From IMG/VR virus record IMGVR_UViG_3300006139_000008: a DNA stretch of 46,733 nucleotides, one strand, 5' to 3'. Of this stretch, positions 9,501 through 46,227 are shown in pieces. A model generated the notes under the pieces. The model made no database searches. It was not told the DNA's origin and was given only the letters and a program-made list of their open reading frames with translations. Every line of letters starts with the position of its first letter. The first letter of the stretch is position 1. Origin of the DNA: a virus (Duplodnaviria; Heunggongvirae; Uroviricota; Caudoviricetes). The position numbers were made by a program, and so were the translations under genes.

Positions 9501-10535
9501 GTGATAAATGTGGACGGTAAAAATGCAAAACGCAGCGAAGATATAACGGATGAAATGTGGTCAGAAGTTTTGGAATTTAATAGAAATATGGTTCAAGAAT
9601 ATTTAGATAATCAGACTGAACTTGCTGCAAAATCAAAAATTGCTTACAAATCTGGATTACGAATATTTTTCTATTGGGTTAAACAAAATCTTAACAATAA
9701 AAGTTTTCTTGACATAAAAAAGAAAGAATATGTAAGATATCTGAATTGGATTACAAACAGAGGCTTATCTGATTCTGCTATCAAATTTAAAAAGTCAAGT
9801 GTTAGCTCATTTTGTAATTATGTAATGATGATGTATGAAGAGGAATATCCTACGTTCCGCAATTTCACAGTCGGATTAAAAGTAGTAAAAACGGGAAATG
9901 TATACCCAAAAGAACCGCTTACGCCAGATGAATATATTATGCTCTGTGAAGAATTAGAGAAACGTGAAGAATGGCAAAAATTAGCTTACTTGGTTTTTAC
10001 ATATTCAACTGGATGTAGACGTGCCGAATCAAGACAACTTTTAAAAGAAGTTATTGATTATCCAGCTAAAGAGAGAAAAATTAAAATTGTTGATGAAGAT
10101 GGAAATGAAAAAGAGGCAATTTCAAAATCTTATCAAACTCATATAATTCGTTGCAAAGGTGCATCCGTTGTTGGTAAGCCAAGAAAACTGAAATTTGGCG
10201 AAGATGCTATGTCATGGATGAAAAAATGGTTAGAAGTTCGTGGTGAAGATGATTGTCCCTATATGTTTGTCGTAAAATATAAAAATGGTAAAACTAGACA
10301 AGTAGGTGAAGGTACTTTTAATGGTTGGTGTGAAAAATTATTTGCAAAAATCATTGGGAGACGCTGCCATCCACATCAGTTCCGAGAATCGCGCGCAACT
10401 AACTTAGTAGTTTACGAACATAAATCTGCTGAGGTTGCACAAAAATTGTTAGGTCATAATGATGTAAGTACCACCAAGAATCATTATATTATTCGCAATG
10501 ATGAAATTGACGAATCTGATGAAGCATTTGTCTAA
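9501..10535 (+). CDS. Tyrosine recombinase/integrase-family protein
   Basis: TGCRRAE (Arg), HPHQFRES (H-x-x-R), LLGH...TTKNHY (His, catalytic Tyr); N-terminal core-binding domain. Confidence 0.92.
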   Translation: MINVDGKNAKRSEDITDEMWSEVLEFNRNMVQEYLDNQTELAAKSKIAYKSGLRIFFYWVKQNLNNKSFLDIKKKEYVRYLNWITNRGLSDSAIKFKKSSVSSFCNYVMMMYEEEYPTFRNFTVGLKVVKTGNVYPKEPLTPDEYIMLCEELEKREEWQKLAYLVFTYSTGCRRAESRQLLKEVIDYPAKERKIKIVDEDGNEKEAISKSYQTHIIRCKGASVVGKPRKLKFGEDAMSWMKKWLEVRGEDDCPYMFVVKYKNGKTRQVGEGTFNGWCEKLFAKIIGRRCHPHQFRESRATNLVVYEHKSAEVAQKLLGHNDVSTTKNHYIIRNDEIDESDEAFV

Positions 10536-10565
10536 TCAATAAATCTCCAATTTCATTGTAAATAA

Positions 10566-10600
10566 AAAGAGAGGGATCACACGGAATCCCTCTTTATAAA
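10566..10600. terminator. Probable bidirectional terminator between convergent genes
   Basis: AGAGGGAT-CACACGGA-ATCCCTCT with A/T-rich flanks. Confidence 0.6.
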
Positions 10601-10867
10601 TTTTGCTATACGTAAAATTTTATTTAATTTAGACTTTTTATTGGTTTTTACTCCTGATTTTTCTATATTGTTTTTATATTCTTTTAAGTTTTCATTATAA
10701 GTTTTAGCCTTGTCCAATGTCAATTCATTATACTTATCTATCGACTTGAATTTGCGTTTATCATGACACATGTACGCTATAAATATAAGCACAAATGCTG
10801 TCAGTACCACAAATGCTATTATAGCTATTGCAAGTAATGTATTTACATTAATATTTATTCCAAACAT
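10577..10867 (-). CDS. Single-TM membrane protein with basic C-terminal tail (moron-like)
   Basis: Hydrophobic stretch LLAIAIIAFVVLTAFVLIFIAY; GAGGTG SD upstream; antisense to the phage operon. Confidence 0.7.
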   Translation of the reverse strand: MFGININVNTLLAIAIIAFVVLTAFVLIFIAYMCHDKRKFKSIDKYNELTLDKAKTYNENLKEYKNNIEKSGVKTNKKSKLNKILRIAKFIKRDSV

Positions 10868-12749: not shown

Positions 12750-13739
12750 TTAAATGTTGGTTATTATATTGTCCTGAAATTTCAATTCACCTATTTCAAT
12801 TTCTCCAATAAAGTTCTTTACAAAATTAGGTCTTATGACAAAGCATATTTCTGAGATATCCTTTAAATATTTCTGAGGCATACTATCATATGTTATTGGA
12901 ATAACAATTTCTTCATAATCCTTACCTATAGTGAATGTTTGTTCGTAAAATTTAAACAAATTATCACCACACTTAAATTCAATTGTTATCTTTTGAATAG
13001 ATTCGTTTTCACTTCTGCATTTGCAATAAAATATACTATTAGGGGTTATAGTACTCCAATCCTTATGTGGTACAAACTGATAAACACAACTAATAAAATT
13101 ACTTGGAATAGGGTAAAAATCATTTGCTTTAAAATTACAATACATTTTATGAAAACTGTTATCTGATTCTAGTCTTACCGCATCTGGATCACCATTTTGC
13201 GCCACACAAATAATATTTGCATCTCTAAAATTAAATCCATAATTTTCACTTACATATATTTTAACATTTTCTGTAAACTGTTTTATTTTATCAAACAATT
13301 CATGCTCTTGCATAAAATTTAATCTTGGAATTATTTGCTTTTCTACTAACTTATATTCATAGAGTTTTTTGAATAAATCTTCTGCATCAATTAATATGAT
13401 ACTTTGTATTATCTTTAATGGAGTATCATTTAAAACGCCATAATCTAACGGTGGTACAATAATTGGGAAAATATTATCTTTAAATGCCCAGGCAGCACCC
13501 ATTTCCATAATACAAAATTTACTGTTAATATAATTTTGTGTAATTAGAAAAATTACAATTTCTGAATCGTGAAGATTATCTTTGATACTCTTAATAAAAT
13601 CCTCACCAACTCTTAACGCATTATCCATAGATGTACAAAATATCTCATCATAATCAATATGAAATCCTTGTGTAAGCAAATCAACAAACATCAGCACTAA
13701 ATCTCTATCTTTTGAAGAATGACTTATAAAAATTTTCAT
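12750..13739 (-). CDS. TIR-domain protein with C-terminal beta-rich, carbohydrate-binding-like domain (start ATG 13739)
   Basis: MKIFISHSSKD...IVIFLITQNYINSKFCIMEMGAAW is a TIR fold with the conserved Glu; GAAAGGA SD; TG-TTATAAT promoter-like sequence upstream. Confidence 0.8.
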   Translation of the reverse strand: MKIFISHSSKDRDLVLMFVDLLTQGFHIDYDEIFCTSMDNALRVGEDFIKSIKDNLHDSEIVIFLITQNYINSKFCIMEMGAAWAFKDNIFPIIVPPLDYGVLNDTPLKIIQSIILIDAEDLFKKLYEYKLVEKQIIPRLNFMQEHELFDKIKQFTENVKIYVSENYGFNFRDANIICVAQNGDPDAVRLESDNSFHKMYCNFKANDFYPIPSNFISCVYQFVPHKDWSTITPNSIFYCKCRSENESIQKITIEFKCGDNLFKFYEQTFTIGKDYEEIVIPITYDSMPQKYLKDISEICFVIRPNFVKNFIGEIEIGELKFQDNIITNI

Positions 13740-13908
13740 CAGTTTATTCCTTTCATAATTAATATTTAAATTATAACACACAATGGATATATTTTCCATT
13801 ACAAAGTCGTCATTTATGTCGACTCTTTTTGTATTTTCGCCATTTCATACAGGGTAATTACTACCCTCTCCTGCCTTGAATGAATTGTTTCATTGGCAAA
13901 ATTATAAA

Positions 13909-14505
13909 CTAACTATGTCCATCGGAATTACGTTTACCATGAAGAAAGACTAAATATAATATTGTCAATATAAAACATGAAATAAATAGAATCGAATTCA
14001 ACAGTAAGAGGAAATTAAACTTTAATGTTATATACTCAATTACAATTTTGTAACATATAATCAAACAATAAATAATAGGAAATACCCATTTATATAATAT
14101 ATCGACAAAATCACTCATTTTAGGATAATTTGATAAATAATTTCCGCTTTCTCTATCAAATGTTATGTGTTCAATGTTTGATATATCTGATTCTATTGAA
14201 TGAATGCAATTATATTGTTTTTCTATATGTATAGTTGCTTGATAATATCTCATTGTCAAATACAATAGTATTAGCCATAAGAAACTTTGTATTATAGACA
14301 TTTGATTTGATATATCAATCTCATATTGTTTTTGAACAATACCTATAATTAAATATGAAATACTATCTGGTGATAATGCAAATAAAAATTGTAAAGTCAT
14401 CACAAGAAAAACCATTACAAAGAAACGATTTCTTTGAATAATGGTTTCTTTTATTATAGAAAATGTCTCTTTGTAATGGTCATATAGCAACTCTGTTTTA
14501 TCCAT
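13909..14505 (-). CDS. Multi-pass (~4 TM) membrane protein, putative defence effector
   Basis: Four hydrophobic segments; starts 5 nt after the stop of the upstream TIR gene. Confidence 0.7.
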   Translation of the reverse strand: MDKTELLYDHYKETFSIIKETIIQRNRFFVMVFLVMTLQFLFALSPDSISYLIIGIVQKQYEIDISNQMSIIQSFLWLILLYLTMRYYQATIHIEKQYNCIHSIESDISNIEHITFDRESGNYLSNYPKMSDFVDILYKWVFPIIYCLIICYKIVIEYITLKFNFLLLLNSILFISCFILTILYLVFLHGKRNSDGHS

Positions 14506-14510
14506 AATAT

Positions 14511-14936
14511 TTATGCTTCATTCAATGCCTTAATAATTGCATCCTGCGTAAAACTCATTGCCCATTTAGCTCCTGCCCCCATTAACTCATCTGGAGACTC
14601 ATATGACTTATCTATTTTTACAGCAACAAGTTTATTTTTGTGTTCTTTACTTTTTGCGATTTCAAAGTTAATCCAATTTTTATATCCTATAGCAACATGA
14701 TCTTTGTGCTGTGTATTCGCTTCTTTCCCAACGATCACAAGCGTATATGTAGTAGTATTGATGCGTCTTGTTAAACCAGCTTTAATGGTTGGAATATTAT
14801 TACTTTGAATTTCGTCCGAAGAACAATCATTAAAAACGAAATCCATATTCTTATTTGCGTCCCATGCATCTAAAAGAAATTTATAGTGCTTATCGTTAGT
14901 ATAATCGAATGATACAAATACTTTTTTCTTAGCCAT
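14511..14936 (-). CDS. thsB: ThsB-like TIR protein (DUF1863/MTH538-like)
   Basis: KKVFVSFDY...D...LVIVG...WINFEI...LVAV pattern typical of Thoeris ThsB TIR domains, with the conserved Glu. Confidence 0.75.
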   Translation of the reverse strand: MAKKKVFVSFDYTNDKHYKFLLDAWDANKNMDFVFNDCSSDEIQSNNIPTIKAGLTRRINTTTYTLVIVGKEANTQHKDHVAIGYKNWINFEIAKSKEHKNKLVAVKIDKSYESPDELMGAGAKWAMSFTQDAIIKALNEA

Positions 14937-15317: not shown

Positions 15318-16361
15318 ATGGTGCTTATGGCACAAGCAAAATCAAACAGGCGTGTGACTACTACTGCACCGTCTAAAAACACAGAGATTCAGAAAATAAA
15401 ATATTCCAAAGAGGATGAACCAACTTTTTATAAGTGTCCTACTTGCGGAACACCATATAAAAAATTAGATGATAACTTTCCTGCATCTCAAAGCGAGATG
15501 TATGCTGGATGGGATTATCACCTTCCTATATGTAAACGCTGCTTAGATGCAATGTTCTCCCATTATACAGAAGTGTACGGAAATGATGAGGACGCTGCTA
15601 TAAGAAGGATTTGCGAAAAGTTTGATATTTATTATAGTGTTAGTCTTTTGAACGCAAGTAGAAAGATTACAAAGAATCGCTCCAGAATACATACATATGT
15701 ATCTCGTGCAAATTTGAGTCAATATAAAGGCAAAACCTTTGATACAACTCTTGATGAAGAACGCAAGGAAGGTGTTATAGAAACACTTGATGATGTAAAA
15801 GAATCTAAAAAAGCGAAATTAAAGACAGTTAAGTTTTTTGGCACGGGATTTGAAGATGACGATTATGTATTTCTTGAGGATGAGTATTTAGATTGGACAA
15901 CTCGCCACGAATGTAATACAAAGGCACAAGAGGAAGTATTTAAGCAAATATGTTATGCCCAGTTAGATATTCTAAAGGCAAAACGTGCTAGACAGCCTAC
16001 GAAAGACTTGACCAAAACATTACAAGATTTATTGGCAACAGCTAATCTTCAGCCAAAGCAGACTAAGGATAATACTTTAGCAGAACAAAATACGTTTGGG
16101 ACTTTGATTAGAAAGTGGGAAAATGAGCGTCCTATCCCAGAACCAGATGAAGAATGGAAAGATGTAGATGGTATAGCAAAGTATATAACCATATACTTCT
16201 TAGGACATTTGTGTAAAATGATGGGAATCAAAAATTCATATTCTCGTATGTATGAAGCTGAAATGGCAAAATATAAAGTTGAAAAGCCAGAATATGAAGA
16301 TGATGACGAGGCACTTTTTGATGCTGTGTTTGGTGGTGAATTAGATGAACCAGACCAGTAA
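15318..16361 (+). CDS. YonG-like protein upstream of large terminase (possible small subunit)
   Basis: CxxC...CxxC Zn motif (CPTC, CKRC); overlaps the terminase start; SPbeta-like synteny. Confidence 0.6.
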   Translation: MVLMAQAKSNRRVTTTAPSKNTEIQKIKYSKEDEPTFYKCPTCGTPYKKLDDNFPASQSEMYAGWDYHLPICKRCLDAMFSHYTEVYGNDEDAAIRRICEKFDIYYSVSLLNASRKITKNRSRIHTYVSRANLSQYKGKTFDTTLDEERKEGVIETLDDVKESKKAKLKTVKFFGTGFEDDDYVFLEDEYLDWTTRHECNTKAQEEVFKQICYAQLDILKAKRARQPTKDLTKTLQDLLATANLQPKQTKDNTLAEQNTFGTLIRKWENERPIPEPDEEWKDVDGIAKYITIYFLGHLCKMMGIKNSYSRMYEAEMAKYKVEKPEYEDDDEALFDAVFGGELDEPDQ

Positions 16362-18108
16362 AAAGACAGATAAAGAAGTTGCAAATGATAAGTCTGCTAA
16401 AATTATGAATGGTGTTGCTACATGGTGTAGCTTTTATAGAGCCAATCCACATAGATTTGCAAGAGATTATCTTGGGATTACATTAAAATTATTTCAAATA
16501 ATTCTCTTATATATGATGAATGTCAGTAACTACTTCATGTATCTTGCCGCTCGTGGTCAAGGTAAAACGTGGTTGACCGCTCTATTCTGTACTATTCGTT
16601 GCATTTTATACCCTGGGACTAAAATATGTGTAGCATCAAAAAATAGAAATCAGGCAAACGAAGTCCTAGAGAAGATAACTACTGACTTTATGGATAAATC
16701 TGATAATTTGAAATTAGAAATTGAAGATTATTCTGTTGGTCAAAATAAAGCATATATACTTTTTAAGAATGGTTCTTGGATAAAAGTTGTAACTGCATCG
16801 GATTCAGGAAGATCGGCTCGTGCAAATATCTTGATTACTGATGAGTTTAGAATGGTAGACTTAAACGTAATCAATACTGTTCTTAGAAAATTCTTAACAG
16901 CTCCCAGAACTCCAAAATATTTAAGTAAAAAAGAGTATAAGCACTTAGTAGAAAGAAATAAAGAGATATATATGTCGAGTTGCTGGTTCAAGAGCCACTG
17001 GTCTTTTGAAAAGGCAAAAGCTTATTGTGCAAATCTTGTTAATGATACTAAGAAATATTTTATATGTGGACTCCCATATCAAATTTCAATCAAAGAAAGT
17101 TTGTTATCAAGAGAACAAGTTGAAGATGAAATGTCAGAAGCAGATTTTTCCGAAATGGCTTGGGATATGGAAATGGGCTGCCTCTGGTATGGTGATAAAG
17201 ATGGAAGTTTGTTTTCATATGAAGACACTTCTAAAAATCGTGTTTTGAAGAAATGCGTATATCCTGAACATATATCAAGGTTAATTCCAGCAAAAGACAT
17301 AAAAATACCAGAACTCAAATCAAATGAACAAAGAATCATATCTACGGACGTTGCCTTACTTGCTTCTAAAAAGCAAAATAACGATGCCGCTTCTATTTTT
17401 ATCAATAGTGCAATTCCAACAAACAATCAAAAGTATATTGGGAATATGATTTATACAGAAAACCATGAAGGATTAAATACCGATGAATTGGCTCTAATTA
17501 TTCGTAGATATTTTGATATGTATAAATGTACTTATATCGCTCTTGATGTTAAGGGTATTGGTCTTGGTGTTTATGATTGTTTAATCAAAGATATGTATGA
17601 CCCGATTATGGGTAAAACATATGGGGCTTTAAGTTGCTGTAATGACAAAGTATATGCAGATAGATGTAAGGTTCAAAATGCTCCAAAAGTAATCTGGGCA
17701 ATACAAGCTACTGCTCAATTTAACAATGATATGTATCTGAGTTTAAGAGAAGGTTTTCGCCAGCATAAAATTAATTTGCTCATAAATGAATTTGAAGCAG
17801 AGGAAATTTTAAAAGATACTCGTGGATATAATTCTTTACAAGCAAGTGATAAAACATTATTGCAGTTACCATATATTCACACTACCCTACTTATCAACGA
17901 ATTAATCAATCTTGAATACGAGGCAAAGGGGGTAAATATTAAAGTCTATGAAAAATCTGGTATGAGAAAAGACCGTGTATCAAGTGTTGGTTACAATTAT
18001 TGGGTTCAGTGTCAATTAGAAACACGTTTGAAAAAACCTAATAACTCTCCAACCAACGTCTCCTCCCTCACTGCTCTCGCACGAAAACCAAAATTATATT
18101 CACATTAG
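16345..18108 (+). CDS. terL: Terminase large subunit (YonF-like)
   Basis: Walker A AARGQGKT, Walker B ILITDE; C-terminal RNase H-like nuclease (STDVA...KDRVSS). Confidence 0.92.
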   Translation: MNQTSKKTDKEVANDKSAKIMNGVATWCSFYRANPHRFARDYLGITLKLFQIILLYMMNVSNYFMYLAARGQGKTWLTALFCTIRCILYPGTKICVASKNRNQANEVLEKITTDFMDKSDNLKLEIEDYSVGQNKAYILFKNGSWIKVVTASDSGRSARANILITDEFRMVDLNVINTVLRKFLTAPRTPKYLSKKEYKHLVERNKEIYMSSCWFKSHWSFEKAKAYCANLVNDTKKYFICGLPYQISIKESLLSREQVEDEMSEADFSEMAWDMEMGCLWYGDKDGSLFSYEDTSKNRVLKKCVYPEHISRLIPAKDIKIPELKSNEQRIISTDVALLASKKQNNDAASIFINSAIPTNNQKYIGNMIYTENHEGLNTDELALIIRRYFDMYKCTYIALDVKGIGLGVYDCLIKDMYDPIMGKTYGALSCCNDKVYADRCKVQNAPKVIWAIQATAQFNNDMYLSLREGFRQHKINLLINEFEAEEILKDTRGYNSLQASDKTLLQLPYIHTTLLINELINLEYEAKGVNIKVYEKSGMRKDRVSSVGYNYWVQCQLETRLKKPNNSPTNVSSLTALARKPKLYSH

Positions 18109-29758: not shown

Positions 29759-29989
29759 ATAAGACATGGAGTAATTTTTGATAATTTAGATGAAGTTTAC
29801 CAGAATTATAATAATGAAGTTTTAAAAATTGTAAATATAAAACAACTTTTGTTCTACTCTGATATTTGCAATGTTCAACCAGACTGGATTGGGAAATCAG
29901 CTTATGACGAAAAATTGATTGCATATTATGGGAAAGATAGGACTAAGGAATGTTGGGAACGTTGGAAAAGACATGATACTAAAAAATAG
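29759..29989 (+). CDS. Hypothetical protein (76 aa), apparent ATA start
   Basis: Not in track. GAGGTGA at 29748-29754; open frame IRHGVIFDNLDEV...ERWKRHDTKK to TAG 29987-29989; fills the gap in the operon. Confidence 0.7.
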   Translation: MRHGVIFDNLDEVYQNYNNEVLKIVNIKQLLFYSDICNVQPDWIGKSAYDEKLIAYYGKDRTKECWERWKRHDTKK

Positions 29990-30007
29990 AAAGAAAGGAT
30001 TTTTATT

Positions 30008-30316
30008 ATGGAAGAAATTATAGGATTATTGCCAGTACTTTTAGTGGCAGTTGTTATGAATATTGCTGCTGGTACATATTTCAATGTTGAAAAAGAAAAT
30101 TTCAAATTCAGTTTCAAAAAGTTAATATCAGGAATAATCAAAGCAGGTATCGTAGGTGGAATGTTTATTGGCACTGCATATTGCTTTGAAGCAACTGACT
30201 TATCTTCTGTTGGGATAACACCTATTTTTGTGATGCTGTCAGCGATTTCCCTGTATGTGGGGAAGGCAATTGTGTCACTTGGGAAAATTTTAGGCGTTGA
30301 GATTAAAAGTAAATAA
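30008..30316 (+). CDS. Holin-like membrane protein (~3 TM)
   Basis: Three hydrophobic segments, basic C-terminus, directly before the amidase. Confidence 0.65.
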   Translation: MEEIIGLLPVLLVAVVMNIAAGTYFNVEKENFKFSFKKLISGIIKAGIVGGMFIGTAYCFEATDLSSVGITPIFVMLSAISLYVGKAIVSLGKILGVEIKSK

Positions 30317-30334
30317 GTAAGGAACGGTGAAAAC

Positions 30335-30883
30335 ATGAAAATTGCATTAACAGTTGGCCACTCTTTATTAAAGAATGGATGCTATACCAGTGCTGACGGG
30401 AAAACATACGGTGGCTGCAATGAATATAAATGGTGCAAGGCATTTTCGAAACAGCTGGCATCCGCCCTAAAAAAGAACGGACATAAGGTGGAGAGAATCG
30501 TATGCCCTGAAAAAAAGTTTTCCTGCAGTACACAGGAAAAAAGTTATAAGTTGAATTTAATTAATCGCAACAATTATGATCTTGTAATAGAACTGCATCT
30601 AAATGCAGCTTCCCCATCTGCAAAAGGAACTGAAGTTTTATATAAATCTCCTACAGGCAAAAAGTTTGCAAAAAATATACAAAATCAGTTATCTTCTGTA
30701 TTTTATAATAGGGGTATTAAGAAACGTATAGATTTATATATCCTTAATGGGACAAAACCACCAGCAATTTTAATTGAAACATTTTTCTGTACTAATAAAA
30801 ACGACTATGCAAAAGCGAAAGGTCTTGTAAAGAGAAAGAAAATTGCAAAACTAATTGCGGATGGAATCGAAAATACAATCTAA
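30335..30883 (+). CDS. N-acetylmuramoyl-L-alanine amidase (Amidase_3) endolysin, catalytic domain only
   Basis: LTVGH, E (NEY), IELHLNA, GTEV, ILIETFF motifs. Confidence 0.88.
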   Translation: MKIALTVGHSLLKNGCYTSADGKTYGGCNEYKWCKAFSKQLASALKKNGHKVERIVCPEKKFSCSTQEKSYKLNLINRNNYDLVIELHLNAASPSAKGTEVLYKSPTGKKFAKNIQNQLSSVFYNRGIKKRIDLYILNGTKPPAILIETFFCTNKNDYAKAKGLVKRKKIAKLIADGIENTI

Positions 30884-30907
30884 GAAAGGAAATGGCACTT
30901 ACATCCA

Positions 30908-31417
30908 ATGGATAGTATCACAGCATTAACCAGAATTGATTACACTTCTGTTTTTATTTCCGTCTTTATAATACTAATTGGTATTAAAGCGATTGTTTCA
31001 CTTTTTGAATGGGTAATTGATAAGCTTGGGGTTGAGACAAAATGGATGAGAAAACAACGTGAAGAACATGAATTGTTGATACAAACTTCTCAAAACTTAA
31101 CCGCCTTACAAGAAAGACATGTACATGATATGCATATATCTGATAAACGCGACGAAGAAATTTCTTCTGATATCAAAAAACTTACCAGAATGTTTGTAGA
31201 TAAAGAAATCGACGATATGCGCTGGGAAATCAATAATTTTGCAACCAAGGTATCAGAAGGGAGACCATGCAATAAAGACAGTTTTAAACATTGTATCCAT
31301 ACATATGAAAAATATGAAAAAATATTGGAGGAAAACGGTCTTGAAAATGGTGAAGTCGAAATATCAATGGAATTAATCAATGATGTGTACAAACAAAAAT
31401 TAAAAGAAGGATTTTAG
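30908..31417 (+). CDS. Membrane-anchored coiled-coil protein (lysis-associated?)
   Basis: N-terminal TM (VFISVFIILIGIKAIVSLF) followed by a charged helical domain. Confidence 0.55.
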   Translation: MDSITALTRIDYTSVFISVFIILIGIKAIVSLFEWVIDKLGVETKWMRKQREEHELLIQTSQNLTALQERHVHDMHISDKRDEEISSDIKKLTRMFVDKEIDDMRWEINNFATKVSEGRPCNKDSFKHCIHTYEKYEKILEENGLENGEVEISMELINDVYKQKLKEGF

Positions 31418-31515
31418 AAGTAATTAGCAAAAAAATACTAATATTTTGCAATAAAAGACCACTATCATAACGAAATGCTCTTTTATTTATTTTTCATAAA
31501 AAGGCGGTGATTAAT

Positions 31516-31848
31516 ATAGCATACTGGATTCAGGAAACAGGAACATATCATAATTATACCAATTATAGAAAATTTATGTGTGATTATCTATCTGATATTA
31601 GAAAACTTCCGAGAGTAGGTATTGAAGGAGAAAAACAGAAAAACGATACTGTGTCATCATCTCCGTGCGCTCATGGAAGTGAATGTATCTGTTTAGAAAA
31701 TTCAACTACATGGATTTTAAGCAAAGACACAAATACATGGACACAATACTCAGCAAGTACTGGTAATAGCGGTAGCGGAGGAGGAACTGTCATAGAAAAA
31801 CCACAAAGAATTACCAAAGATGATATTGATTCACTTTTTAACAGTTAG
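31516..31848 (+). CDS. Hypothetical protein; start probably ATA 31516 (track GTG lies inside the SD)
   Basis: AAGGCGGTGA at 31501-31510. Confidence 0.55.
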   Translation: MAYWIQETGTYHNYTNYRKFMCDYLSDIRKLPRVGIEGEKQKNDTVSSSPCAHGSECICLENSTTWILSKDTNTWTQYSASTGNSGSGGGTVIEKPQRITKDDIDSLFNS

Positions 31849-31862
31849 GTGGTGATGTTTTT

Positions 31863-32120
31863 ATGGAAGATAAAGTATTATATATGGAGGAATTTACTTA
31901 TTATGATAAAAAAATAAAAGAATTAATTTCTTCTAAAAGCAAAAATGTAGTACAAAAACAAAATTATCTACTATTCCCTTCCGTTGGTAATTCAAATTTA
32001 TTTTATATTGATATAGAAAACAATTCCATTTACAGGTGGGACGACACTGGAATGAAATATTTTTGCATTGGTAAAAATTACGAAAATATAGATATTATAT
32101 CTGGTGGATCGAGTAAATAA
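31863..32120 (+). CDS. Hypothetical tail-associated protein (85 aa)
   Basis: AGGTGGTGA SD; FPSVGNSNLFYID motif reminiscent of fibre-associated proteins. Confidence 0.6.
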   Translation: MEDKVLYMEEFTYYDKKIKELISSKSKNVVQKQNYLLFPSVGNSNLFYIDIENNSIYRWDDTGMKYFCIGKNYENIDIISGGSSK

Positions 32121-32189
32121 AAAATAACCTAACTAATCTTCCACTATTTCCTATAGTGGAGTTATTATTTATAAAGGAGAATTCTTTAA

Positions 32190-33125
32190 ATGGGAAATAC
32201 CAATACTAACACATTAAGTACAAGAATTTTAATCTGCAACGACACAGAGGTAAATTGGGGTGCATCTACAAAAGTCTTACTTAAAGGAGAGATGGGAATT
32301 CTTTTCCCAACAGATGCAACAAAAGAGCCAATATTTAAAGTAGGTGACGGAGTCAATACTTTTAATAATCTTAAGCAGGCGAATGTACGACTATCAGAAT
32401 TAAAAGAATTATCTGATAGAATTGGCGATTTGACTACTTTAAAGACAACTGATAAGACAAATATTGTCGCTTCCATTAATGAATTAGTAGACTCAATTAA
32501 ATCTGCCGGAAAAGTAACAATTGATACCAGTAAAACCACAGATGGATATGCAAAGTCGTATACCGTAAAGCAGGGCGTTGACAGCGACGGAAAAGATATC
32601 GTAATCGGTGTAATTGATATACCAAAGGATATGTTTGTAAGTGCAGCAGAAGTTATTGAGTTAAATGATACATCTGTCCTCCCGTCCGGAGTAACTGAAA
32701 CAGGGACTTACATTGAGTTAACTATTGCAAATTCAGCCAATGATAAAGTATATATTAATGTAAATAAACTTGCGAACATTTATAAAGCGAAGGCAAATGC
32801 AGCACAGATCCAGCTTGCTATTGACCCGTCTACAATGGAAATATCTGCATCAATCGTAAATGGTTCTGTTAGTTCTGACGCATTAGCCGATGATGCTGTT
32901 ATTACAAGTAAGATTAAAGATGGTAATGTAACAAAGGCAAAACTTGAGCAGGGTGTACAGGACTCTTTGGATAAAGCGGATGCTGCTGTTACTGATGTAA
33001 AAGTAAATGGAACTGTACTGGCAAAAGATGCTTCAAATGCCGTAAATATTGAGGAAATCCCTACAGATATTTTGAAAAATGGAGAAAATACCCTTATTTT
33101 AGATGGCGGCACAAGTTCAATATAA
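32190..33125 (+). CDS. Tail fibre/baseplate-associated protein with Mtd-N-like N-terminus
   Basis: WGASTKVLLKGEMGI...FKVGDGVNTFNNL; LTTLKTTDKTNIVASINEL fibre repeat. Confidence 0.65.
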   Translation: MGNTNTNTLSTRILICNDTEVNWGASTKVLLKGEMGILFPTDATKEPIFKVGDGVNTFNNLKQANVRLSELKELSDRIGDLTTLKTTDKTNIVASINELVDSIKSAGKVTIDTSKTTDGYAKSYTVKQGVDSDGKDIVIGVIDIPKDMFVSAAEVIELNDTSVLPSGVTETGTYIELTIANSANDKVYINVNKLANIYKAKANAAQIQLAIDPSTMEISASIVNGSVSSDALADDAVITSKIKDGNVTKAKLEQGVQDSLDKADAAVTDVKVNGTVLAKDASNAVNIEEIPTDILKNGENTLILDGGTSSI

Positions 33126-33138
33126 TAGGTGTGATAAA

Positions 33139-34845
33139 ATGGAACAAACAATTTTAGTAAAGCATAAACAGGCATATGATACAGAAGAAAACTGGAAAGC
33201 CAATAATCCTATATTATTAGCTGGACAGCTTGCATATTCCTCTGATAAATATGGTAAATATAAAGTTGGCGATGGTGTAACAAATTGGAATGATTTGGAA
33301 TACTGTAACGAAAAAGTATTTACTGGTACAAGAGAAGAATATGAAACTGCTAATAAAAATGGAGAAATTAAACCAGGCACAATCGTAAATATTACAGATG
33401 ACAATGATTATCAGGATATAAATATTGATACAGAATTATCGGAGGAAAGTGAAAATCTCGTAACTAATAAGACGGTTACAAAAGGTATTAAATACAACGA
33501 TACCAAAGACAATACAGTTACTTTTACTTCTAACGATACTTTAGAACCTCCAGCATACTCAGATGTGTCATTATTAGAAAGTAATGAAAAACACTCTTCT
33601 ATATTCAATAAAATATCTACCATGTTTAAAAATATACGCTATCTGTCTGGATTGCTTGGGACACAAGATATCTCTTCTATCGGTGAAGGAACAGTAACCA
33701 GTGCAATTAACACAATAAATACTAATTTACTAAAAAAGGAAACACTGCTCGCAAAGGGGCATGCAAACAGCGTATCTAATGATTTAAATTTAATAAAAGA
33801 GAGCGGAATATATGTAATTGGAAGCACTAGCGAATATACTAACCTCCCTCCAGAGCTTTCTAGCGAAGCATATTGTGCGCTGGTTGTGTTTAACAGCGGC
33901 ATTTATATCGTGCAGGAAATTTTCATTCCGTTTGATACAAAAGGAACTATTTATTACAGGTTTAGAACGGAACGAGAGGACGGGTGGAAGAGCTGGAAGA
34001 CATTTGGCGAAATATACGACGGCTACGACGAAACGAGAAAGGGGTTTGCAGCGGATGCAACACAGTTGAACAAAGAGGTGGAAGGGAGTTATGCAGCAGG
34101 GGTGGCGGAGGAAATCTCTGGGATAAACGCCAATTTAAACCAGAGATTGAAAGTTCCTAGAAATGCACAAAATTTAGATGATGGCCCCGGTATTAATACT
34201 TTGACAATAAAAGAGCAAGGCCCATATTCCGAAAATATTCCCGAAGAAAACTGGTTCCATGCGATTAGGTCGCAGGGAGATGACGCTAATTATCAAGTAC
34301 AGCTATTACTTGGAATGACAAGTAATAATATGTATTTTAGGAATATGCAGAATGGGGGCTGGAAACCTTGGGATAGAATACTAAAAAATAGTGATTTGTC
34401 AACCATCATCCCACAAGTTTTTAAGTATGCCACCGCCAGACAGCCTATATTTGTCATAAGTACAAGTAGTGAAGACAAGATGTACATTACTAATACCAAT
34501 GACAGGGGGTGCAAAAGGAACAGTTCCGAAAAAGCATTAATATTCAAATGCACGTATGATTCAGGCGGTTATGTCGGATATGGATTGATTTCAAAGACCA
34601 GAGAAGGTGCTTTGTGCACATCACTTCACCAATACGGTGAAATGCATGAACCAATCAAACTTACCACGCCAAAAGGGCACAATGCATACTTTTCTGGTAT
34701 GAAGTATCAAGTTTCATACAGTGCAACAGTTATTGCAGTTGTCGGAGGCACCACAAGTAACATTACGGAACTTTCTTTTGATTACTATGATAAAATGAAT
34801 GGGATGTTTTTCATATTATCAATGGTGGATTACTACATACTTTAA
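33139..34845 (+). CDS. Tail fibre / receptor-binding protein with switchable C-terminus (orientation A, 568 aa)
   Basis: WKANNPILLAGQL...YKVGDGVTNWNDL N-terminus; knob-like repeats (DLNLIKESGIY...W..W); contains the left 36-bp inverted repeat in frame. Confidence 0.75.
   Translation: MEQTILVKHKQAYDTEENWKANNPILLAGQLAYSSDKYGKYKVGDGVTNWNDLEYCNEKVFTGTREEYETANKNGEIKPGTIVNITDDNDYQDINIDTELSEESENLVTNKTVTKGIKYNDTKDNTVTFTSNDTLEPPAYSDVSLLESNEKHSSIFNKISTMFKNIRYLSGLLGTQDISSIGEGTVTSAINTINTNLLKKETLLAKGHANSVSNDLNLIKESGIYVIGSTSEYTNLPPELSSEAYCALVVFNSGIYIVQEIFIPFDTKGTIYYRFRTEREDGWKSWKTFGEIYDGYDETRKGFAADATQLNKEVEGSYAAGVAEEISGINANLNQRLKVPRNAQNLDDGPGINTLTIKEQGPYSENIPEENWFHAIRSQGDDANYQVQLLLGMTSNNMYFRNMQNGGWKPWDRILKNSDLSTIIPQVFKYATARQPIFVISTSSEDKMYITNTNDRGCKRNSSEKALIFKCTYDSGGYVGYGLISKTREGALCTSLHQYGEMHEPIKLTTPKGHNAYFSGMKYQVSYSATVIAVVGGTTSNITELSFDYYDKMNGMFFILSMVDYYIL
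34114..34149 (+). repeat. Left 36-bp inverted repeat (putative recombination site)
   Basis: ATCTCTGGGATAAACGCCAATTTAAACCAGAGATTG is the exact reverse complement of 35351-35386. Confidence 0.95.
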
Positions 34846-35350
34846 ATTAATTTATCGGAATAAGCGTTATTTCAGAAATAGAAAGATAAACCGTATTGTA
34901 ATCAAGTTCATCGCCATGGTATAGGCCGAAGCTTATCCTCTCCTCTCCTTTATCTGAAATATTGACGCATGTTTCAAAATATGTTTCTGTGTCCGTCTCA
35001 GCAAGCAGTTCCCATGACGAATAGTCATACGGGACACTTTCCTCTGGAACAGGAGCATCTCCTGCCAGAAAATAACAGCGTACAGTAAGATTGGAAGAGC
35101 TGTCGCTGCTAATATAACCTTTTATTAAAATTCCTGTATAAGCTCTAAAGTCAGTAATGCCTTTAGTTACTATAATCCCAGAATCAACATGCCCCTCGCC
35201 ATTTATGCTATATGATTTTCCGATACCGAAGTGTTGCATTCCATTAATTTCAATAGAGCGATAAAAGCAATTATAGTAATTGAATGAATACATTTCCTTA
35301 GACGCACCAAGGTACCACCCTTTACATGCAATTAACAACACTTTTTGTGG
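34150..35350. mobile_element. Putative invertible tail-fibre cassette (~1.2 kb)
   Basis: Bounded by perfect inverted repeats; holds two convergent alternative 3' gene ends, both in frame with the repeat. Confidence 0.85.
34847..35350 (-). CDS. Silent alternative tail-fibre C-terminus (167 aa, orientation B)
   Basis: Minus-strand frame reads ISGINANLNQRL (the repeat) then PQKVLL...LIPIN*; the same peptide is at the junction in the 33139 ORF. Confidence 0.8.
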   Translation of the reverse strand, partial: PQKVLLIACKGWYLGASKEMYSFNYYNCFYRSIEINGMQHFGIGKSYSINGEGHVDSGIIVTKGITDFRAYTGILIKGYISSDSSSNLTVRCYFLAGDAPVPEESVPYDYSSWELLAETDTETYFETCVNISDKGEERISFGLYHGDELDYNTVYLSISEITLIPIN

Positions 35351-35386
35351 CAATCTCTGGTTTAAATTGGCGTTTATCCCAGAGAT
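35351..35386 (-). repeat. Right 36-bp inverted repeat
   Basis: CAATCTCTGGTTTAAATTGGCGTTTATCCCAGAGAT. Confidence 0.95.
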
Positions 35387-35414
35387 ACATTTAACTAAAA
35401 AAGAGGTATAATAC

Positions 35415-37256
35415 ATGTCAATAAATATACAAACAGAAAATAATGAATTAAAAAAGATTGCAGGGACATACGGAACAAATATTGAAAGTAATATTACTAC
35501 TGATTCTGAATTGTCGCTTGAAAGCAGTAATCCGATACAGAATCAAGCCGTTGCCCAAGGATTAAATACTATTGAAGATACAGTAGGTGCAATAAGGTTA
35601 ACTAAAAAATACATCGGTGAACATAATACCCTATCTTCTTTTATTAATGGGCTGAAGGAAAATACTTGCTATGTTTTTGTCTTAACACATTCAACTTTAT
35701 CAGAAGCACTCACTCTTGCAAACATTGGATTTTTACATCAACAAAGAGAAAACGGTATTCTTAAAATCTCATGTGGTTTTAATAAATATGGTATATTTGT
35801 AGAATTTAGTGATGGTATTAATGATATACAGCAGAGGTCTATCATATATAATCCTAATTATACGGATAATTATGAATTAAATGATTGGCATAGATTTATT
35901 ACTGAAGATGGTTCTGTAAAACATGCGGATACGGCTGAGAATGCAGATACGGTAGATGGATATCATGTAAATGATTCTCCTAGTGCAGATCCACGTGGTA
36001 AAATTCCGATAGTAAAAAGTGATGGCGTAATGGAAGTTGGTAAATATATAGATTTCCATGTATCGACCGCAGATTGGGACAATGATGCCAGGATTACAGC
36101 CGGTTACGATAAAATGGAAATTGATAAACCGATTGAATCTCCGGGCATCAAAACATCTTCCCTTACTGTTAGCAGAAGTTTTTCTGGATACGGCGATCCA
36201 CAATTTGTTGTAGAAAATCCAACTTACCCAAACGCTAAAGTGATTGGATATGTTGACCAAGAAGGCGCAAATTTTAGGTTGCAGTGCAACGAGGGAAATA
36301 ACTACTTCGAATTCGATACTTTAGGAAATAATCTAAGGTTGTACCATTATTACAATGGGGCGACACCAACACTTATATCCTCTGTTGGTTCTGGGAATAA
36401 CTTAGAGCTGCAAATCGCAAGGGCTACTAAAGACAGTGATGGAAATGTGATTAAAAATACGTATTTGAAAAGTGGCAGTAATATTAGTGTTGGCTCAATT
36501 ATCTCTAGTGGGAATTTACAATTAGGTTCTTCAGCAGGCGGAGGACTGGTTTGTCCGAGTTATGGTTCATTATTTCTCACATCTTCATATGGAACTAGTT
36601 CTAGTAAAGGAATTCGAGTGGATTCCGTCACAGTTGACCCATATGATTATGTTTCGCCTACAGTAATTCCTAAAATTAGTTTTGGGCAGAGCGGTAGACC
36701 ATGGAACGGATTTTATTCTTATGTTTCAATGACAACCGTATCCGATAGACGGCAAAAGAAAAATATATATGAAGTTGATTCAAACACAGCATCACAATTA
36801 ATTTCGAAGATTATTCCAGTAACATATCAATTAAAAGACGGCGAATCTGGAAGAACACATTATGGGATGATTTCTCAACAAGTAGAAGAAGTTCTCAATG
36901 AATTAGAGATTGATTCAAAGGATTTTGCAGCTTTTATCAAATCTCCCATTACGGAAGATGTTATGGAGCAAGCTACAAGTGACGAAGGGGAATTGCTATT
37001 TGACGAAGAAAATAACCCAGTCATGATAAAAGTTGGAGAAAATGAGACTGAAGACTTTACTTACATGCTTCGGTATGAAGAATTTATTCCAATTCTATGG
37101 AAAGATGCCCAAGATAAAAATAGAAAAATTGAGCAATTACAAAATTCAAATGAAGAACTTAGCAATAAAGTTGTTAGCTTAGAGGAAAGAATAGAAAAAC
37201 TTGAATCATACATCAATATTAAAGATACAATAGATGCAGAAGGACGGTTTCAATAA
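35415..37256 (+). CDS. Tail fibre/spike with C-terminal intramolecular chaperone (peptidase S74-like) domain
   Basis: SDRRQKKNI...PVTYQLK...HYGMISQQVEEV...LRYEEFIPILWK then a coiled coil. Confidence 0.85.
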   Translation: MSINIQTENNELKKIAGTYGTNIESNITTDSELSLESSNPIQNQAVAQGLNTIEDTVGAIRLTKKYIGEHNTLSSFINGLKENTCYVFVLTHSTLSEALTLANIGFLHQQRENGILKISCGFNKYGIFVEFSDGINDIQQRSIIYNPNYTDNYELNDWHRFITEDGSVKHADTAENADTVDGYHVNDSPSADPRGKIPIVKSDGVMEVGKYIDFHVSTADWDNDARITAGYDKMEIDKPIESPGIKTSSLTVSRSFSGYGDPQFVVENPTYPNAKVIGYVDQEGANFRLQCNEGNNYFEFDTLGNNLRLYHYYNGATPTLISSVGSGNNLELQIARATKDSDGNVIKNTYLKSGSNISVGSIISSGNLQLGSSAGGGLVCPSYGSLFLTSSYGTSSSKGIRVDSVTVDPYDYVSPTVIPKISFGQSGRPWNGFYSYVSMTTVSDRRQKKNIYEVDSNTASQLISKIIPVTYQLKDGESGRTHYGMISQQVEEVLNELEIDSKDFAAFIKSPITEDVMEQATSDEGELLFDEENNPVMIKVGENETEDFTYMLRYEEFIPILWKDAQDKNRKIEQLQNSNEELSNKVVSLEERIEKLESYINIKDTIDAEGRFQ

Positions 37257-37386
37257 TTTGAAGCCGTTCTTTTATTATTAAATACTATTACTTATTAAGG
37301 TTCAGTCAATAAGTAATGGTATTTATGTGGGAGGTGTAAAAGACTGAACTGCTCCTCTCCTACCATTGATGAAATGAGGTGAAAAT

Positions 37387-37911
37387 ATTACAAAAAATAT
37401 AGGAAAAATTTTTGAACAAAACTGGAAAAAATCTATACCTAATAACGTATTTTATTATAGACCACCAGACTCTGCACAAAGTTTTGGAACAAATGAAACT
37501 TTAAGGTTTAGTGCAAAGTCCCCATGTGACTGTTTTATGTTTGATGGGGATTTTCTATATACAATTGAATTAAAATCTGTGGGTACAAAATCTATATCAT
37601 TTGAAAGGGAAAAGACTGATAAAGGTATTATACATAAGCATCAGATAGATAATTTACAGAAATTTTCTACGTATAAAAATATTATCAGTGGATTCATTTT
37701 TGACTTTAGGTTATCTGATAAAACATACTTTTGCGCAATTGATAACCTTTTAAATATGATAGCAATGCTAGATAAAAAATCATTTAATGAAACTGATTTA
37801 ATAAAATGGTGCGATATTATAATGATTAATAAAAGAAAACTCAGAGTAAATTATAGATATGATGTAAATACATTTTTACAGGAAGTGAAGAAAATTAATG
37901 TTTTCCCATGA
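37387..37911 (+). CDS. recU: RecU-like Holliday junction resolvase; apparent ATT start
   Basis: GAGGTGA SD; frame open 50 codons before ATG 37537, supplying GKIFEQ...; SPCDCFMFDG...IELKS nuclease motif; HKHQIDNL. Confidence 0.75.
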   Translation: MTKNIGKIFEQNWKKSIPNNVFYYRPPDSAQSFGTNETLRFSAKSPCDCFMFDGDFLYTIELKSVGTKSISFEREKTDKGIIHKHQIDNLQKFSTYKNIISGFIFDFRLSDKTYFCAIDNLLNMIAMLDKKSFNETDLIKWCDIIMINKRKLRVNYRYDVNTFLQEVKKINVFP

Positions 37912-44953: not shown

Positions 44954-45255
44954 AACTGCAATCCCCTCCTTTACTACAATATTTCTTCCAGAGAAGATTA
45001 TTTATGTAAACAGAGGGTACCAGTCCCTCTGAGAGAAGGACTAACCGCCTACCGCTTTGGATAGCACCTCAATCATTGTAACATACTGTAGAATTATGTC
45101 AATCTTTATTAAATATTGGCGTAATAAATGTTCAAAGTTATTCTCCTACCCTTTTTATACTATTTTTCAATAATTTTCCTATAAATCATTGACATTTTCC
45201 ATATCTTGTACTACCATCAAATTAACTAAAATTTACCAAAATGGAGGTACAGAAT

Positions 45256-46227
45256 ATGGAATTTACCTGCCGCACAAGGACACTTCAGGCACTATACAAA
45301 GGCATCACTAAATCTTCAAAGATACTACTCTCCCATGAACTGCAAAGAAAAGAAGGGGCGTGGAATGCAAAACAGAAGTCAGACTTAATTGACAGTTTGC
45401 TACGGAACTACCCTATCAATCCTACCTATGGGGTAAAAGAGAATGGGATTCTTGCTATTATTGATGGCGTGCAGAGGCTTTCTACAATTAGGGATTTCCT
45501 TGATTCTAAATTTGCCTTATCCAAAACCTTAAAGCCGGTAGTAATTAACGGTGAAGAAAAGAACATAGCTGGGTTACGTTTTAAAAAGATGGATGACGAT
45601 ACGCAAGAGGCACTCCGCAATTCTGAATTGCAGATATATGAAATCACAGAATATACCGATGAAGATGTCCGCGAAATGTTCAGACGGCAAAATGCAGGGA
45701 CTGCATTAAAACCGTCACAGAAATTGACAAGTTCACAGAGCAAAGAACTGACCCACCTTCTATTTGAATTGTCATCATACCCATTCATCCAAAAAGTGCT
45801 GACACCTATACAGATCAAAAAAGATGTAGACCGTGACATATGCCGTGAAGTATTGATGTTATCAGAAGCATCAAAGGATAACCCTATTACTTCTTTTAGG
45901 GCAAAAGACATGGATGAATTCGTTTCAAACTATGAAATTGACGAAGGGAAAGTCGAAAACATTAAAGCTGCATTAGATAAACTTGATGAATCATTTGACG
46001 AAAATACTAAAATCCCTAAAACATCCATCAGCTTTATAATTTATGCAATGATGAGGGCAATTAAAGATAAAAAATCCACCCAGAAACTGGTGGACATAAT
46101 CCATAATTTCCTTGCCAATTATGATTCAAATGATGAATATAAACAATTCTGTGTACAGGGGACAAGCAATAATGTGAATGTAGTTGGACGACTAGATTAC
46201 TGGAGGGAAGTTGTAAAGACTTTATAA
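45256..46227 (+). CDS. DUF262 (ParB-like/GmrS N-terminal) domain protein
   Basis: LQRKEGAW...LIDSLLRNYPI...IIDGVQRLSTI motifs; GGAGGT SD before ATG 45256. Confidence 0.8.
   Translation: MEFTCRTRTLQALYKGITKSSKILLSHELQRKEGAWNAKQKSDLIDSLLRNYPINPTYGVKENGILAIIDGVQRLSTIRDFLDSKFALSKTLKPVVINGEEKNIAGLRFKKMDDDTQEALRNSELQIYEITEYTDEDVREMFRRQNAGTALKPSQKLTSSQSKELTHLLFELSSYPFIQKVLTPIQIKKDVDRDICREVLMLSEASKDNPITSFRAKDMDEFVSNYEIDEGKVENIKAALDKLDESFDENTKIPKTSISFIIYAMMRAIKDKKSTQKLVDIIHNFLANYDSNDEYKQFCVQGTSNNVNVVGRLDYWREVVKTL

Follow-up and report, generated by a model that had tools for sequence, protein, structure and literature searches.

A probable site-specific inversion switch in the tail-fibre gene of an SPbeta-like phage of Lachnospiraceae

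We examined a 46,733-nucleotide stretch of DNA from a Caudoviricetes phage (IMG/VR record IMGVR_UViG_3300006139_000008; "the window" hereafter means this whole stretch), in which a pair of perfect inverted repeats at one tail-fibre gene encloses two convergent, alternative C-terminal tips. The locus is probably a site-specific DNA inversion switch inside the tail-fibre gene, by which a constant N-terminal part would be joined to one tip or the other. Both orientations of the segment exist among near-identical relatives.

A fibre gene with two crossover sites and two tips

The initial annotation of this DNA had described exact 36-bp (base pair) inverted repeats that both read in frame, and a repeat search together with our own script confirms them at every coordinate: the 36-nucleotide (nt) copies at 34114-34149 and 35351-35386 are exact reverse complements, their identity ends at the very next base on either side of both copies, and the in-frame reading of each is ISGINANLNQRL. 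A degenerate dyad pattern allowing up to 3 mismatches matches the window at these two sites only, and no match of any kind was obtained in 100 dinucleotide-preserving shuffles of the window (0/100). The locus is made up of the following parts (aa, amino acids).

32190-33125, plus strand: tail-fibre-like protein upstream, 311 aa (PHROG tail matches; synteny kept in L001, L003, L006 and L009)
33139-34845, plus strand: fibre gene in its present form A, 568 aa (open reading frame list, PHROG tail-fibre N-terminal matches, ribosome-binding site, orthologue P0001)
33139-34113, plus strand: constant N-terminal fibre part, of which the last ~400 nt (33746-34148, running into the left site) are a portable module
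34114-34149, no strand: left crossover site IRL, with the 34-bp core ATCTCTGGGATAAA-CGCCAA-TTTAAACCAGAGAT
34150-34845, plus strand: tip A cassette, currently expressed, 231 aa and stop
34847-35350, minus strand: tip B cassette, currently silent, 167 aa and stop, intact and in frame with the right site
34150-35350, no strand: invertible segment of 1201 bp with the two convergent tips; equivalent segments are found inverted in relatives
35351-35386, no strand: right crossover site IRR, exact reverse complement of IRL
35415-37256, plus strand: second fibre downstream, 613 aa, with a Peptidase_S74 intramolecular-chaperone domain; next to the inverton in SPbeta-like relatives too

Read from the ATG at 33139, the fibre consists at present of 337 constant residues followed by the 231 residues of tip A (568 aa), and flipping 34150-35350 in silico produces, in frame, a fibre of 337 + 167 = 504 aa, which reproduces the lengths given by the initial annotation. 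Counting from an upstream in-frame ATG at 33103 gives 580 aa for form A and 516 aa for the flipped form; an AGGTG ribosome-binding site precedes the ATG at 33139, and the 568-aa orthologue P0001 (93% identity) starts at the equivalent of that codon. The stop codons of the two tips (34843-34845 on the plus strand, 34847-34849 on the minus strand) meet with 1 base between them, as had been annotated, and no terminator-like site was found between the two. The minus-strand open reading frame carries an ATG of its own at 35416, without a preceding Shine-Dalgarno sequence. The 1201-bp segment contains the two tip frames only, with no assembly chaperone gene paired with either tip, and IRR lies 28 nt upstream of the next fibre gene, whose ribosome-binding site is untouched.

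Near-identical relatives differ by inversion of the segment

In three pairs of near-identical phages, the two members come from different samples and inversion is all that separates them. L006 and L024, from sibling JGI samples, have flanks that are 100% identical over 1597 + 1178 nt and 1247 nt between them that are inverted, and the same inversion separates L006 from L009, which comes from an ENA sample. In a siphovirus-type prophage, 1122 nt are inverted between L004 and L005, and two IMG/VR phages from different samples, L191 and L250, have flanks of 100% and 99.6% identity around 606 inverted nt. In each pair the outer half-sites are unmoved, whereas the inner ones trade places precisely at TAAA-spacer-TTTA, so the crossover must lie within 13-15 nt. 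Flipping L006 in silico yields the tip expressed in L009 and flipping L009 yields the tip expressed in L006, and likewise for L004 and L005. The layout of constant part, site, tip, convergent silent tip and site recurs at nine loci, and the flipped frame is open in all of them (9/9; 103-248 aa), so that the invertible fibre tip proposed by the initial annotation is borne out by these loci and by the three pairs.

Two assemblies hint at mixed populations within one sample. The Logan contig L025 stops exactly at the last base of a 22-nt shared core (shorter than k=31), and L011 (IMGVR_UViG_3300029767_000337; 10019-10857) ends in an 88-nt perfect fold-back, in which the silent tip runs into a copy of the constant-region end in reverse. 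L011 is probably an assembly that walked between the orientation states, with both states present in that sample.

Site architecture and its spread across phage backbones

Each repeat is itself a dyad, with 14-bp arms, symmetric at 12 of the 14 positions, around the asymmetric 6-bp spacer CGCCAA. We find this 14-6-14 site at the head of the variable part of the fibre in three unrelated Lachnospiraceae phage backbones: SPbeta-like relatives of the window phage (L001-L003, L006-L010, L024, L025), a siphovirus-type prophage (L004, L005, L045) and a siphovirus-type lineage from IMG/VR and human-gut contigs (L011-L013, L103, L191, L250, L267). The half-site consensus ATCTCTnnGATAAA + AACTCTGTAATAAA is kept in all three, the non-coding right arm included. 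The outer-left arm reads ATCTCT(G/A)(G/C)GATAAA, and the outer-right arm, which is non-coding or leader DNA, reads AACTCTGTAATAAA in L001 and L004/L005 and AACTCTTTGAAAAA or TTCTCTTTGTTAAA in the other lineages. The central 6 bases vary by lineage (CGCCAA, CGCTGA, CACGGG, TAATAG, TAACAG, TGACAG), and partner sites carry an identical spacer in every locus where both sites are present (5 of the 6 spacer variants), suggesting that the spacers of partner sites may have to match. Fixed arms, a free spacer and spacer identity between partners together point to a tyrosine-recombinase core site, which looks like those of lox, FRT or dif style, and not to a 12-2-12 site of the Gin/Cin/Hin type.

The junction motif QLNKEVEGSYAAGVAEEISGINANL is conserved in fibres that otherwise differ, and the ~400 nt of the window that comprise the end of the constant part and the site (33746-34148) are 94-97% identical in DNA sequence to L004:10398-10797 and L005:8022-8424, phages whose remaining genes are unrelated to those of the window phage. 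This identity points to a recent exchange of the junction module between phages. The silent tip of L001 resembles the expressed tip of L045, and taken with the shared module this suggests that the junction is also an exchange point between phages.

Neither the exact site nor the fully palindromic pattern has a match in IMG/VR, the junction-motif alignment finds no relative in GTDB species genomes, the L004 tail protein retrieves nothing in an IMG/VR scan, a scan of IMG/VR with the N-terminal alignment gives N-terminal 63-aa matches only, and megablast of the region against 50,697 GenBank phages gives no match. Scanning metagenomes for the left site yielded 120 loci, almost all of them chance matches; L123 was set aside as an unrelated locus with a recombinase between long repeats. 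One locus of a different kind, L084:743-1506 (also L132 and L136; human-gut metagenome contigs), has a 700-nt intergenic segment within a perfect 32-nt inverted repeat that contains ATCTCTACGATAAA-TCTTTA-TTTA. The segment sits between genes for a ribose-phosphate pyrophosphokinase and a methyltransferase, has no Rfam match, and may be a chromosomal inverton using the same half-site.

Proposed mechanism and candidate recombinases

In the mechanism we propose, the constant 337-aa part ends in the ISGINANLNQRL peptide, encoded by the crossover site itself. A recombinase would pair the two identical inverted 34-bp sites and exchange strands within the 6-bp spacer CGCCAA, flipping the 1201-bp segment so that the constant part is joined either to tip A (231 aa), as now, or to tip B (167 aa), and the unused tip would stay silent and antisense. 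The downstream S74 fibre gene would stay put, with read-through possible in either state. The enzyme would be of the tyrosine type, not a Gin/Cin-type serine invertase, and would act from a distance, as it is not encoded beside the cassette. By analogy with known systems, each flip could bring a change of receptor or host range.

The genes of the window were scanned with Pfam as a set of 50 open reading frames, namely those of at least 90 aa, minus antisense frames inside larger genes, plus several shorter ones. A serine-recombinase domain (Resolvase, PF00239) is found in 0/50 of them, genes flanking the cassette included, and the sole site-specific recombinase in the set lies 24 kb from the cassette.

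9501-10535, plus strand: Xer-like tyrosine recombinase, 344 aa (Pfam Phage_integrase and Phage_int_SAM_1)

The layout of this enzyme is XerD-like, with two domains: a SAM-like core-binding domain at the N-terminus and a catalytic domain that is intact. Its NCBIfam XerC and XerD matches are under the cut-off, and alignment with XerA (4A8E) places its HxxR and GH..Y motifs. The gene belongs to the core set of the lineage, and over 1000 database proteins, many of them on contigs of 100-190 kb, are homologous to its product at 75-95% identity. Such conservation is unusually high for a phage gene, and no target site of the enzyme's own turned up close to the gene. Three genomes encoding the Xer-like recombinase, when searched with the site patterns, give few matches and no paired sites, the 30-nt pattern matching no more often than a reversed-pattern control; two loci considered as host uses of the site, L036 and L037, are chance matches.

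Several observations weigh against an active switch of the kind proposed. No recombinase flanks the cassette, and none is encoded within 20 kb of it among the scanned reading frames. A 95%-identical copy of the Xer-like enzyme is present in the metagenome-assembled genome (MAG) G001, whose related phage is without the fibre module. The inverton phages of the IMG/VR lineage carry a different tyrosine recombinase, of ~190 aa and FimB/E-sized, and one inverton-bearing provirus (the record of L011) is without a tyrosine recombinase in the examined 82% of its genome. The assignment of the enzyme to the tyrosine class derives from site architecture, with breakpoints mapped no finer than 13 nt. As for orientation, the comparison of strains advocated by the initial annotation gives both states among relatives and the tip-A state only in the window, in L001-L003 (93-98% identical) and in one X3 contig, and no full-length fibre ending in tip B is present in a collection of 5.8 billion proteins.

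As a dedicated invertase the Xer-like enzyme was rejected, given its more than 1000 close homologues, its presence in G001 without the fibre module, and the lack of any excess of sites in the genomes searched that encode it. The ~190-aa recombinase of the IMG/VR lineage consists of a catalytic domain only, is encoded directly upstream of HNH and terminase genes (L049:1441-2016; L048, L050, L283, L284, L285), is 22% identical to the Xer-like enzyme of the window, and is not found in the window; it is present in members with an inverton and in relatives with a fixed single tip alike. One half-site used over backbones with different recombinases suggests either a common enzyme acting in trans, possibly from the host, or the convergence of several enzymes on a portable site. 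We divide our expectation among three sources: the Xer-like recombinase that the phage itself encodes (9501-10535) and a host-encoded recombinase receive about a third each, and the rest falls to some other recombinase outside the window. A more far-reaching proposal, which we regard as tentative and rather doubtful, is that a single portable site in the ISxINxxL motif serves at least three unrelated Lachnospiraceae backbones through one recombinase in trans, host-encoded or common to the phages.

Alternatives to an active tyrosine-type switch

It is improbable that the locus is a frozen relic, a once-active inverton that now has no cognate recombinase, with tip A fixed and tip B a silent leftover. 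The lone tip-A orientation of the window and its closest relatives would fit such a relic, as would the want of any form-B protein on record, of a dedicated invertase nearby, and the existence in another lineage of relatives with a fixed single tip (L012, L013); the 36-bp sites are nevertheless still base-identical and tip B keeps a complete 167-aa frame, whose predicted domain folds well, where decay should have brought mismatches and stops, and close kin of the same synteny (L006/L024) are found in both orientations. The lone orientation is itself open to another reading, in that a minority orientation is invisible in short-read contigs that break at repeats. When contigs from four runs, all of them mouse-gut metagenomes, were aligned to the region, those of X1, X2 and X6 broke at the left repeat, because the 36-bp repeat is longer than the assembler's k=31, and never bridged the right one, so they carry no orientation information; the X3 contig alone bridges the left site, in the tip-A state. 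The end of the L003 contig, 114 nt past the site, was not counted as evidence. Flipping in this exact phage is suggested by what its relatives do.

We give little credence to a Gin/Cin/Hin-type serine invertase, supplied by the host or encoded beyond the window, whose 2-bp crossover core would be hidden inside the 6-bp "spacer". The classical tail-fibre inversion systems of phages (Mu, P1, e14, p15B) all use such an enzyme (PMC6109161), and a crossover mapped to 13 nt is compatible with a 2-bp core, but the site is 14-6-14 and not the 12-2-12 of hix, gix and cix, and six central bases that vary freely between fixed arms behave as the overlap region of a tyrosine recombinase does. The Pfam scan, again, shows no Resolvase domain in the 50 reading frames, and the one inverton-bearing provirus in which a serine recombinase is the only candidate in the examined 82% of the genome encodes a 533-aa large serine recombinase of the integrase type, located at the prophage end. 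Occasional inversion by RecA-type homologous recombination between the repeats, with no dedicated site or enzyme, is scarcely credible, since for all that no recombinase is adjacent and the repeats of the window are 36 bp and perfect, the inverted relatives share 13-22 nt only, too short for efficiency, the dyad consensus of the arms persists across unrelated phages and even where the arms are non-coding, and every breakpoint lies within the same core.

The two tips

An active tyrosine-type switch would alternate between two very different tips, as tips A and B have no mutual similarity. The AlphaFold2 (AF2) model of tip B, built with 16 relatives (predicted local distance difference test, pLDDT, 85; predicted template modelling score, pTM, 0.81), is an all-beta sandwich from about residue 30, and its Foldseek matches are to the carbohydrate-binding modules (CBM) CBM4, CBM27 and CBM28, to Eph ligand-binding domains and to MAM domains; the viral models that it matches, at TM-scores of 0.45-0.55, are those of tail proteins, neck appendages and "tail-host specificity" proteins. 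The model thus confidently predicts a carbohydrate-binding-module-like beta-sandwich. An exhaustive profile-free search yields 18 relatives of tip B, some of them free-standing frames of 140-180 aa, probably other silent cassettes, and others located at the C-terminal end of longer proteins (259-836 aa). These longer proteins include one with a Sipho_Gp37 tail domain and one with BspA-type leucine-rich repeats. The initial annotation had staked its reading in part on a fibre-like minus-strand tip, and with a confident CBM-type fold and relatives that end tail-type proteins, tip B leaves that reading unrefuted.

Relatives of tip A (35-44% identity) form the expressed tip in certain phages and the silent one in others. 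Its AF2 model is of low confidence (pLDDT 60) and the Foldseek matches are meaningless, and an Atlas search gave weak tail-fibre leads only.

Phage setting and host

The window has 32% G+C and covers a phage late region in which a terminase gene (16345-18108) is followed by head and tail genes, a tail-tube gene, an Amidase_3 lysin, the fibre module, a RecU-like resolvase and the tape-measure protein. Within the fibre module the 311-aa fibre-like protein comes first, then the repeat-bearing fibre, then the 613-aa Peptidase_S74 fibre. Orthologues 98% identical to proteins of the window carry the Pfam families YomU_Tube, YomV_2nd (the tail-tube gene) and YonB, and YomW and RdRP (YonO-like) are found in the relatives L006 and L024; the 925-aa open reading frame of the window has no Pfam match. 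The relatives are MAGs or isolates of Lachnospiraceae. Both the SPbeta-like affiliation and the Gram-positive host of the initial annotation are upheld by these records.

The fibre module as a whole (29900-37300: lysin, small genes, 311-aa protein, invertible fibre and S74 fibre) lies between the tail-tube and tape-measure genes, and in G001:C11 (L043, L044), whose tube protein is 82% identical, unrelated genes stand in its place. The small RecU-like Holliday-junction resolvase gene (37537-37911; PHROG 843) is in the tail module, directly after the S74 fibre. On the minus strand at 12750-14936, antisense to the late operon and before the terminase, are genes for a 349-aa TIR-domain protein, a 198-aa membrane protein and a 141-aa ThsB-like TIR protein. 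GmrSD proteins are restriction endonucleases against modified DNA, and proteins with a GmrSD_N domain are encoded in the window (45241-46227) and in the relative L024 (6725-8557).

Relation to known inversion systems and significance

Inversion of tail-fibre tips is textbook host-range bet-hedging; to our knowledge, it is well studied only in enterobacterial phages, with serine invertases, and for gut phages of Gram-positive hosts there is a single description (Rin). Like Mu G/Gin, P1 C/Cin, e14 P/Pin and p15B Min, the segment described here lies in a tail-fibre gene whose N-terminus is constant and whose C-termini are exchanged; in Mu, P1, e14 and p15B the C-termini set the host range. Systems of the Gin/Cin type have an adjacent serine invertase, 26-bp sites (12-bp half-sites and a 2-bp core) and a Fis-bound enhancer, and each variable part has its own assembly chaperone gene (U, U'). 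In the window phage, by contrast, an adjacent small serine recombinase, a 12-2-12 site, an enhancer of that kind and paired chaperone genes were not found. The parallel that the initial annotation drew with Mu Gin and P1 Cin therefore holds for the constant N-terminus with alternative tips, and as to mechanism the site suggests Rin or Fim instead. The phase-variable host-range switch that it proposed is likewise supported as far as flipping in relatives is concerned; flipping in this phage and a change of host range would follow by extension.

FimB and FimE (Escherichia coli fim) and RecV (Clostridioides difficile) are tyrosine recombinases that invert short segments bounded by inverted repeats, and RecV is unlinked to most of its targets, acting in trans on several switches in a host of the class Clostridia. 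The Fim and RecV switches flip promoters or regulatory regions, whereas the switch in the window flips coding tips, and no Fim or RecV homologue is linked to its site. In the R64 shufflon, the tyrosine recombinase Rci swaps C-terminal segments of the adhesin PilV; that system differs in that the gene is a pilus gene on a plasmid, the segments are multiple, the repeats are 19-bp sfx sequences and rci lies next to them.

Of published systems, the nearest in kind is the Rin shufflon found in prophages of Bifidobacterium breve and B. longum (Mavrich et al. 2018, PMC6109161) and reported from Eggerthella lenta prophages as well (PMC8778435). As here, Rin belongs to Gram-positive gut phages and combines a constant N-terminal part of a receptor-binding protein with invertible C-terminal cassettes, each headed by a repeat; its mechanism is predicted to be of the tyrosine type, and related genomes show differing orientations (PMC6109161). 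Rin has several cassettes, an 11-bp asymmetric repeat (TTCCCTAACCC) and the rin gene beside the cassettes (PMC6109161), whereas the window phage has two cassettes and, as its site, a 34-bp dyad around a 6-bp spacer, with no recombinase encoded alongside, and the sites of the two systems are dissimilar in sequence. For the two-segment inversion between Bb423phi2 and 689b-1, which has no flanking recombinase, an invertase acting in trans has been proposed (PMC6109161), and by its layout this inversion is the nearest published analogue of the window locus.

Full-text literature searches turned up no description of a comparable switch for phages of Lachnospiraceae or for SPbeta-like phages. The principle of the switch is known; the present case carries it over to large SPbeta-like phages whose hosts, the Lachnospiraceae, are dominant in the gut and poorly studied, and it supplies a defined 34-bp site together with natural evidence of flipping in three lineages. 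The two tips are candidate carbohydrate-binding receptor probes for uncultured members of the group. Should a single recombinase in trans serve all the backbones, phages of the gut community would draw on one shared stock of receptor-binding tips. The 400-nt module of 94-97% identity would then be a remnant of such trading, and when a phage changes its tip would be decided by its host cell or by another phage resident there. What sets the locus apart is a site shared over unrelated backbones, a co-varying spacer and the lack of a linked invertase, and these features make it testable whether phage or host controls host-range switching in the gut.

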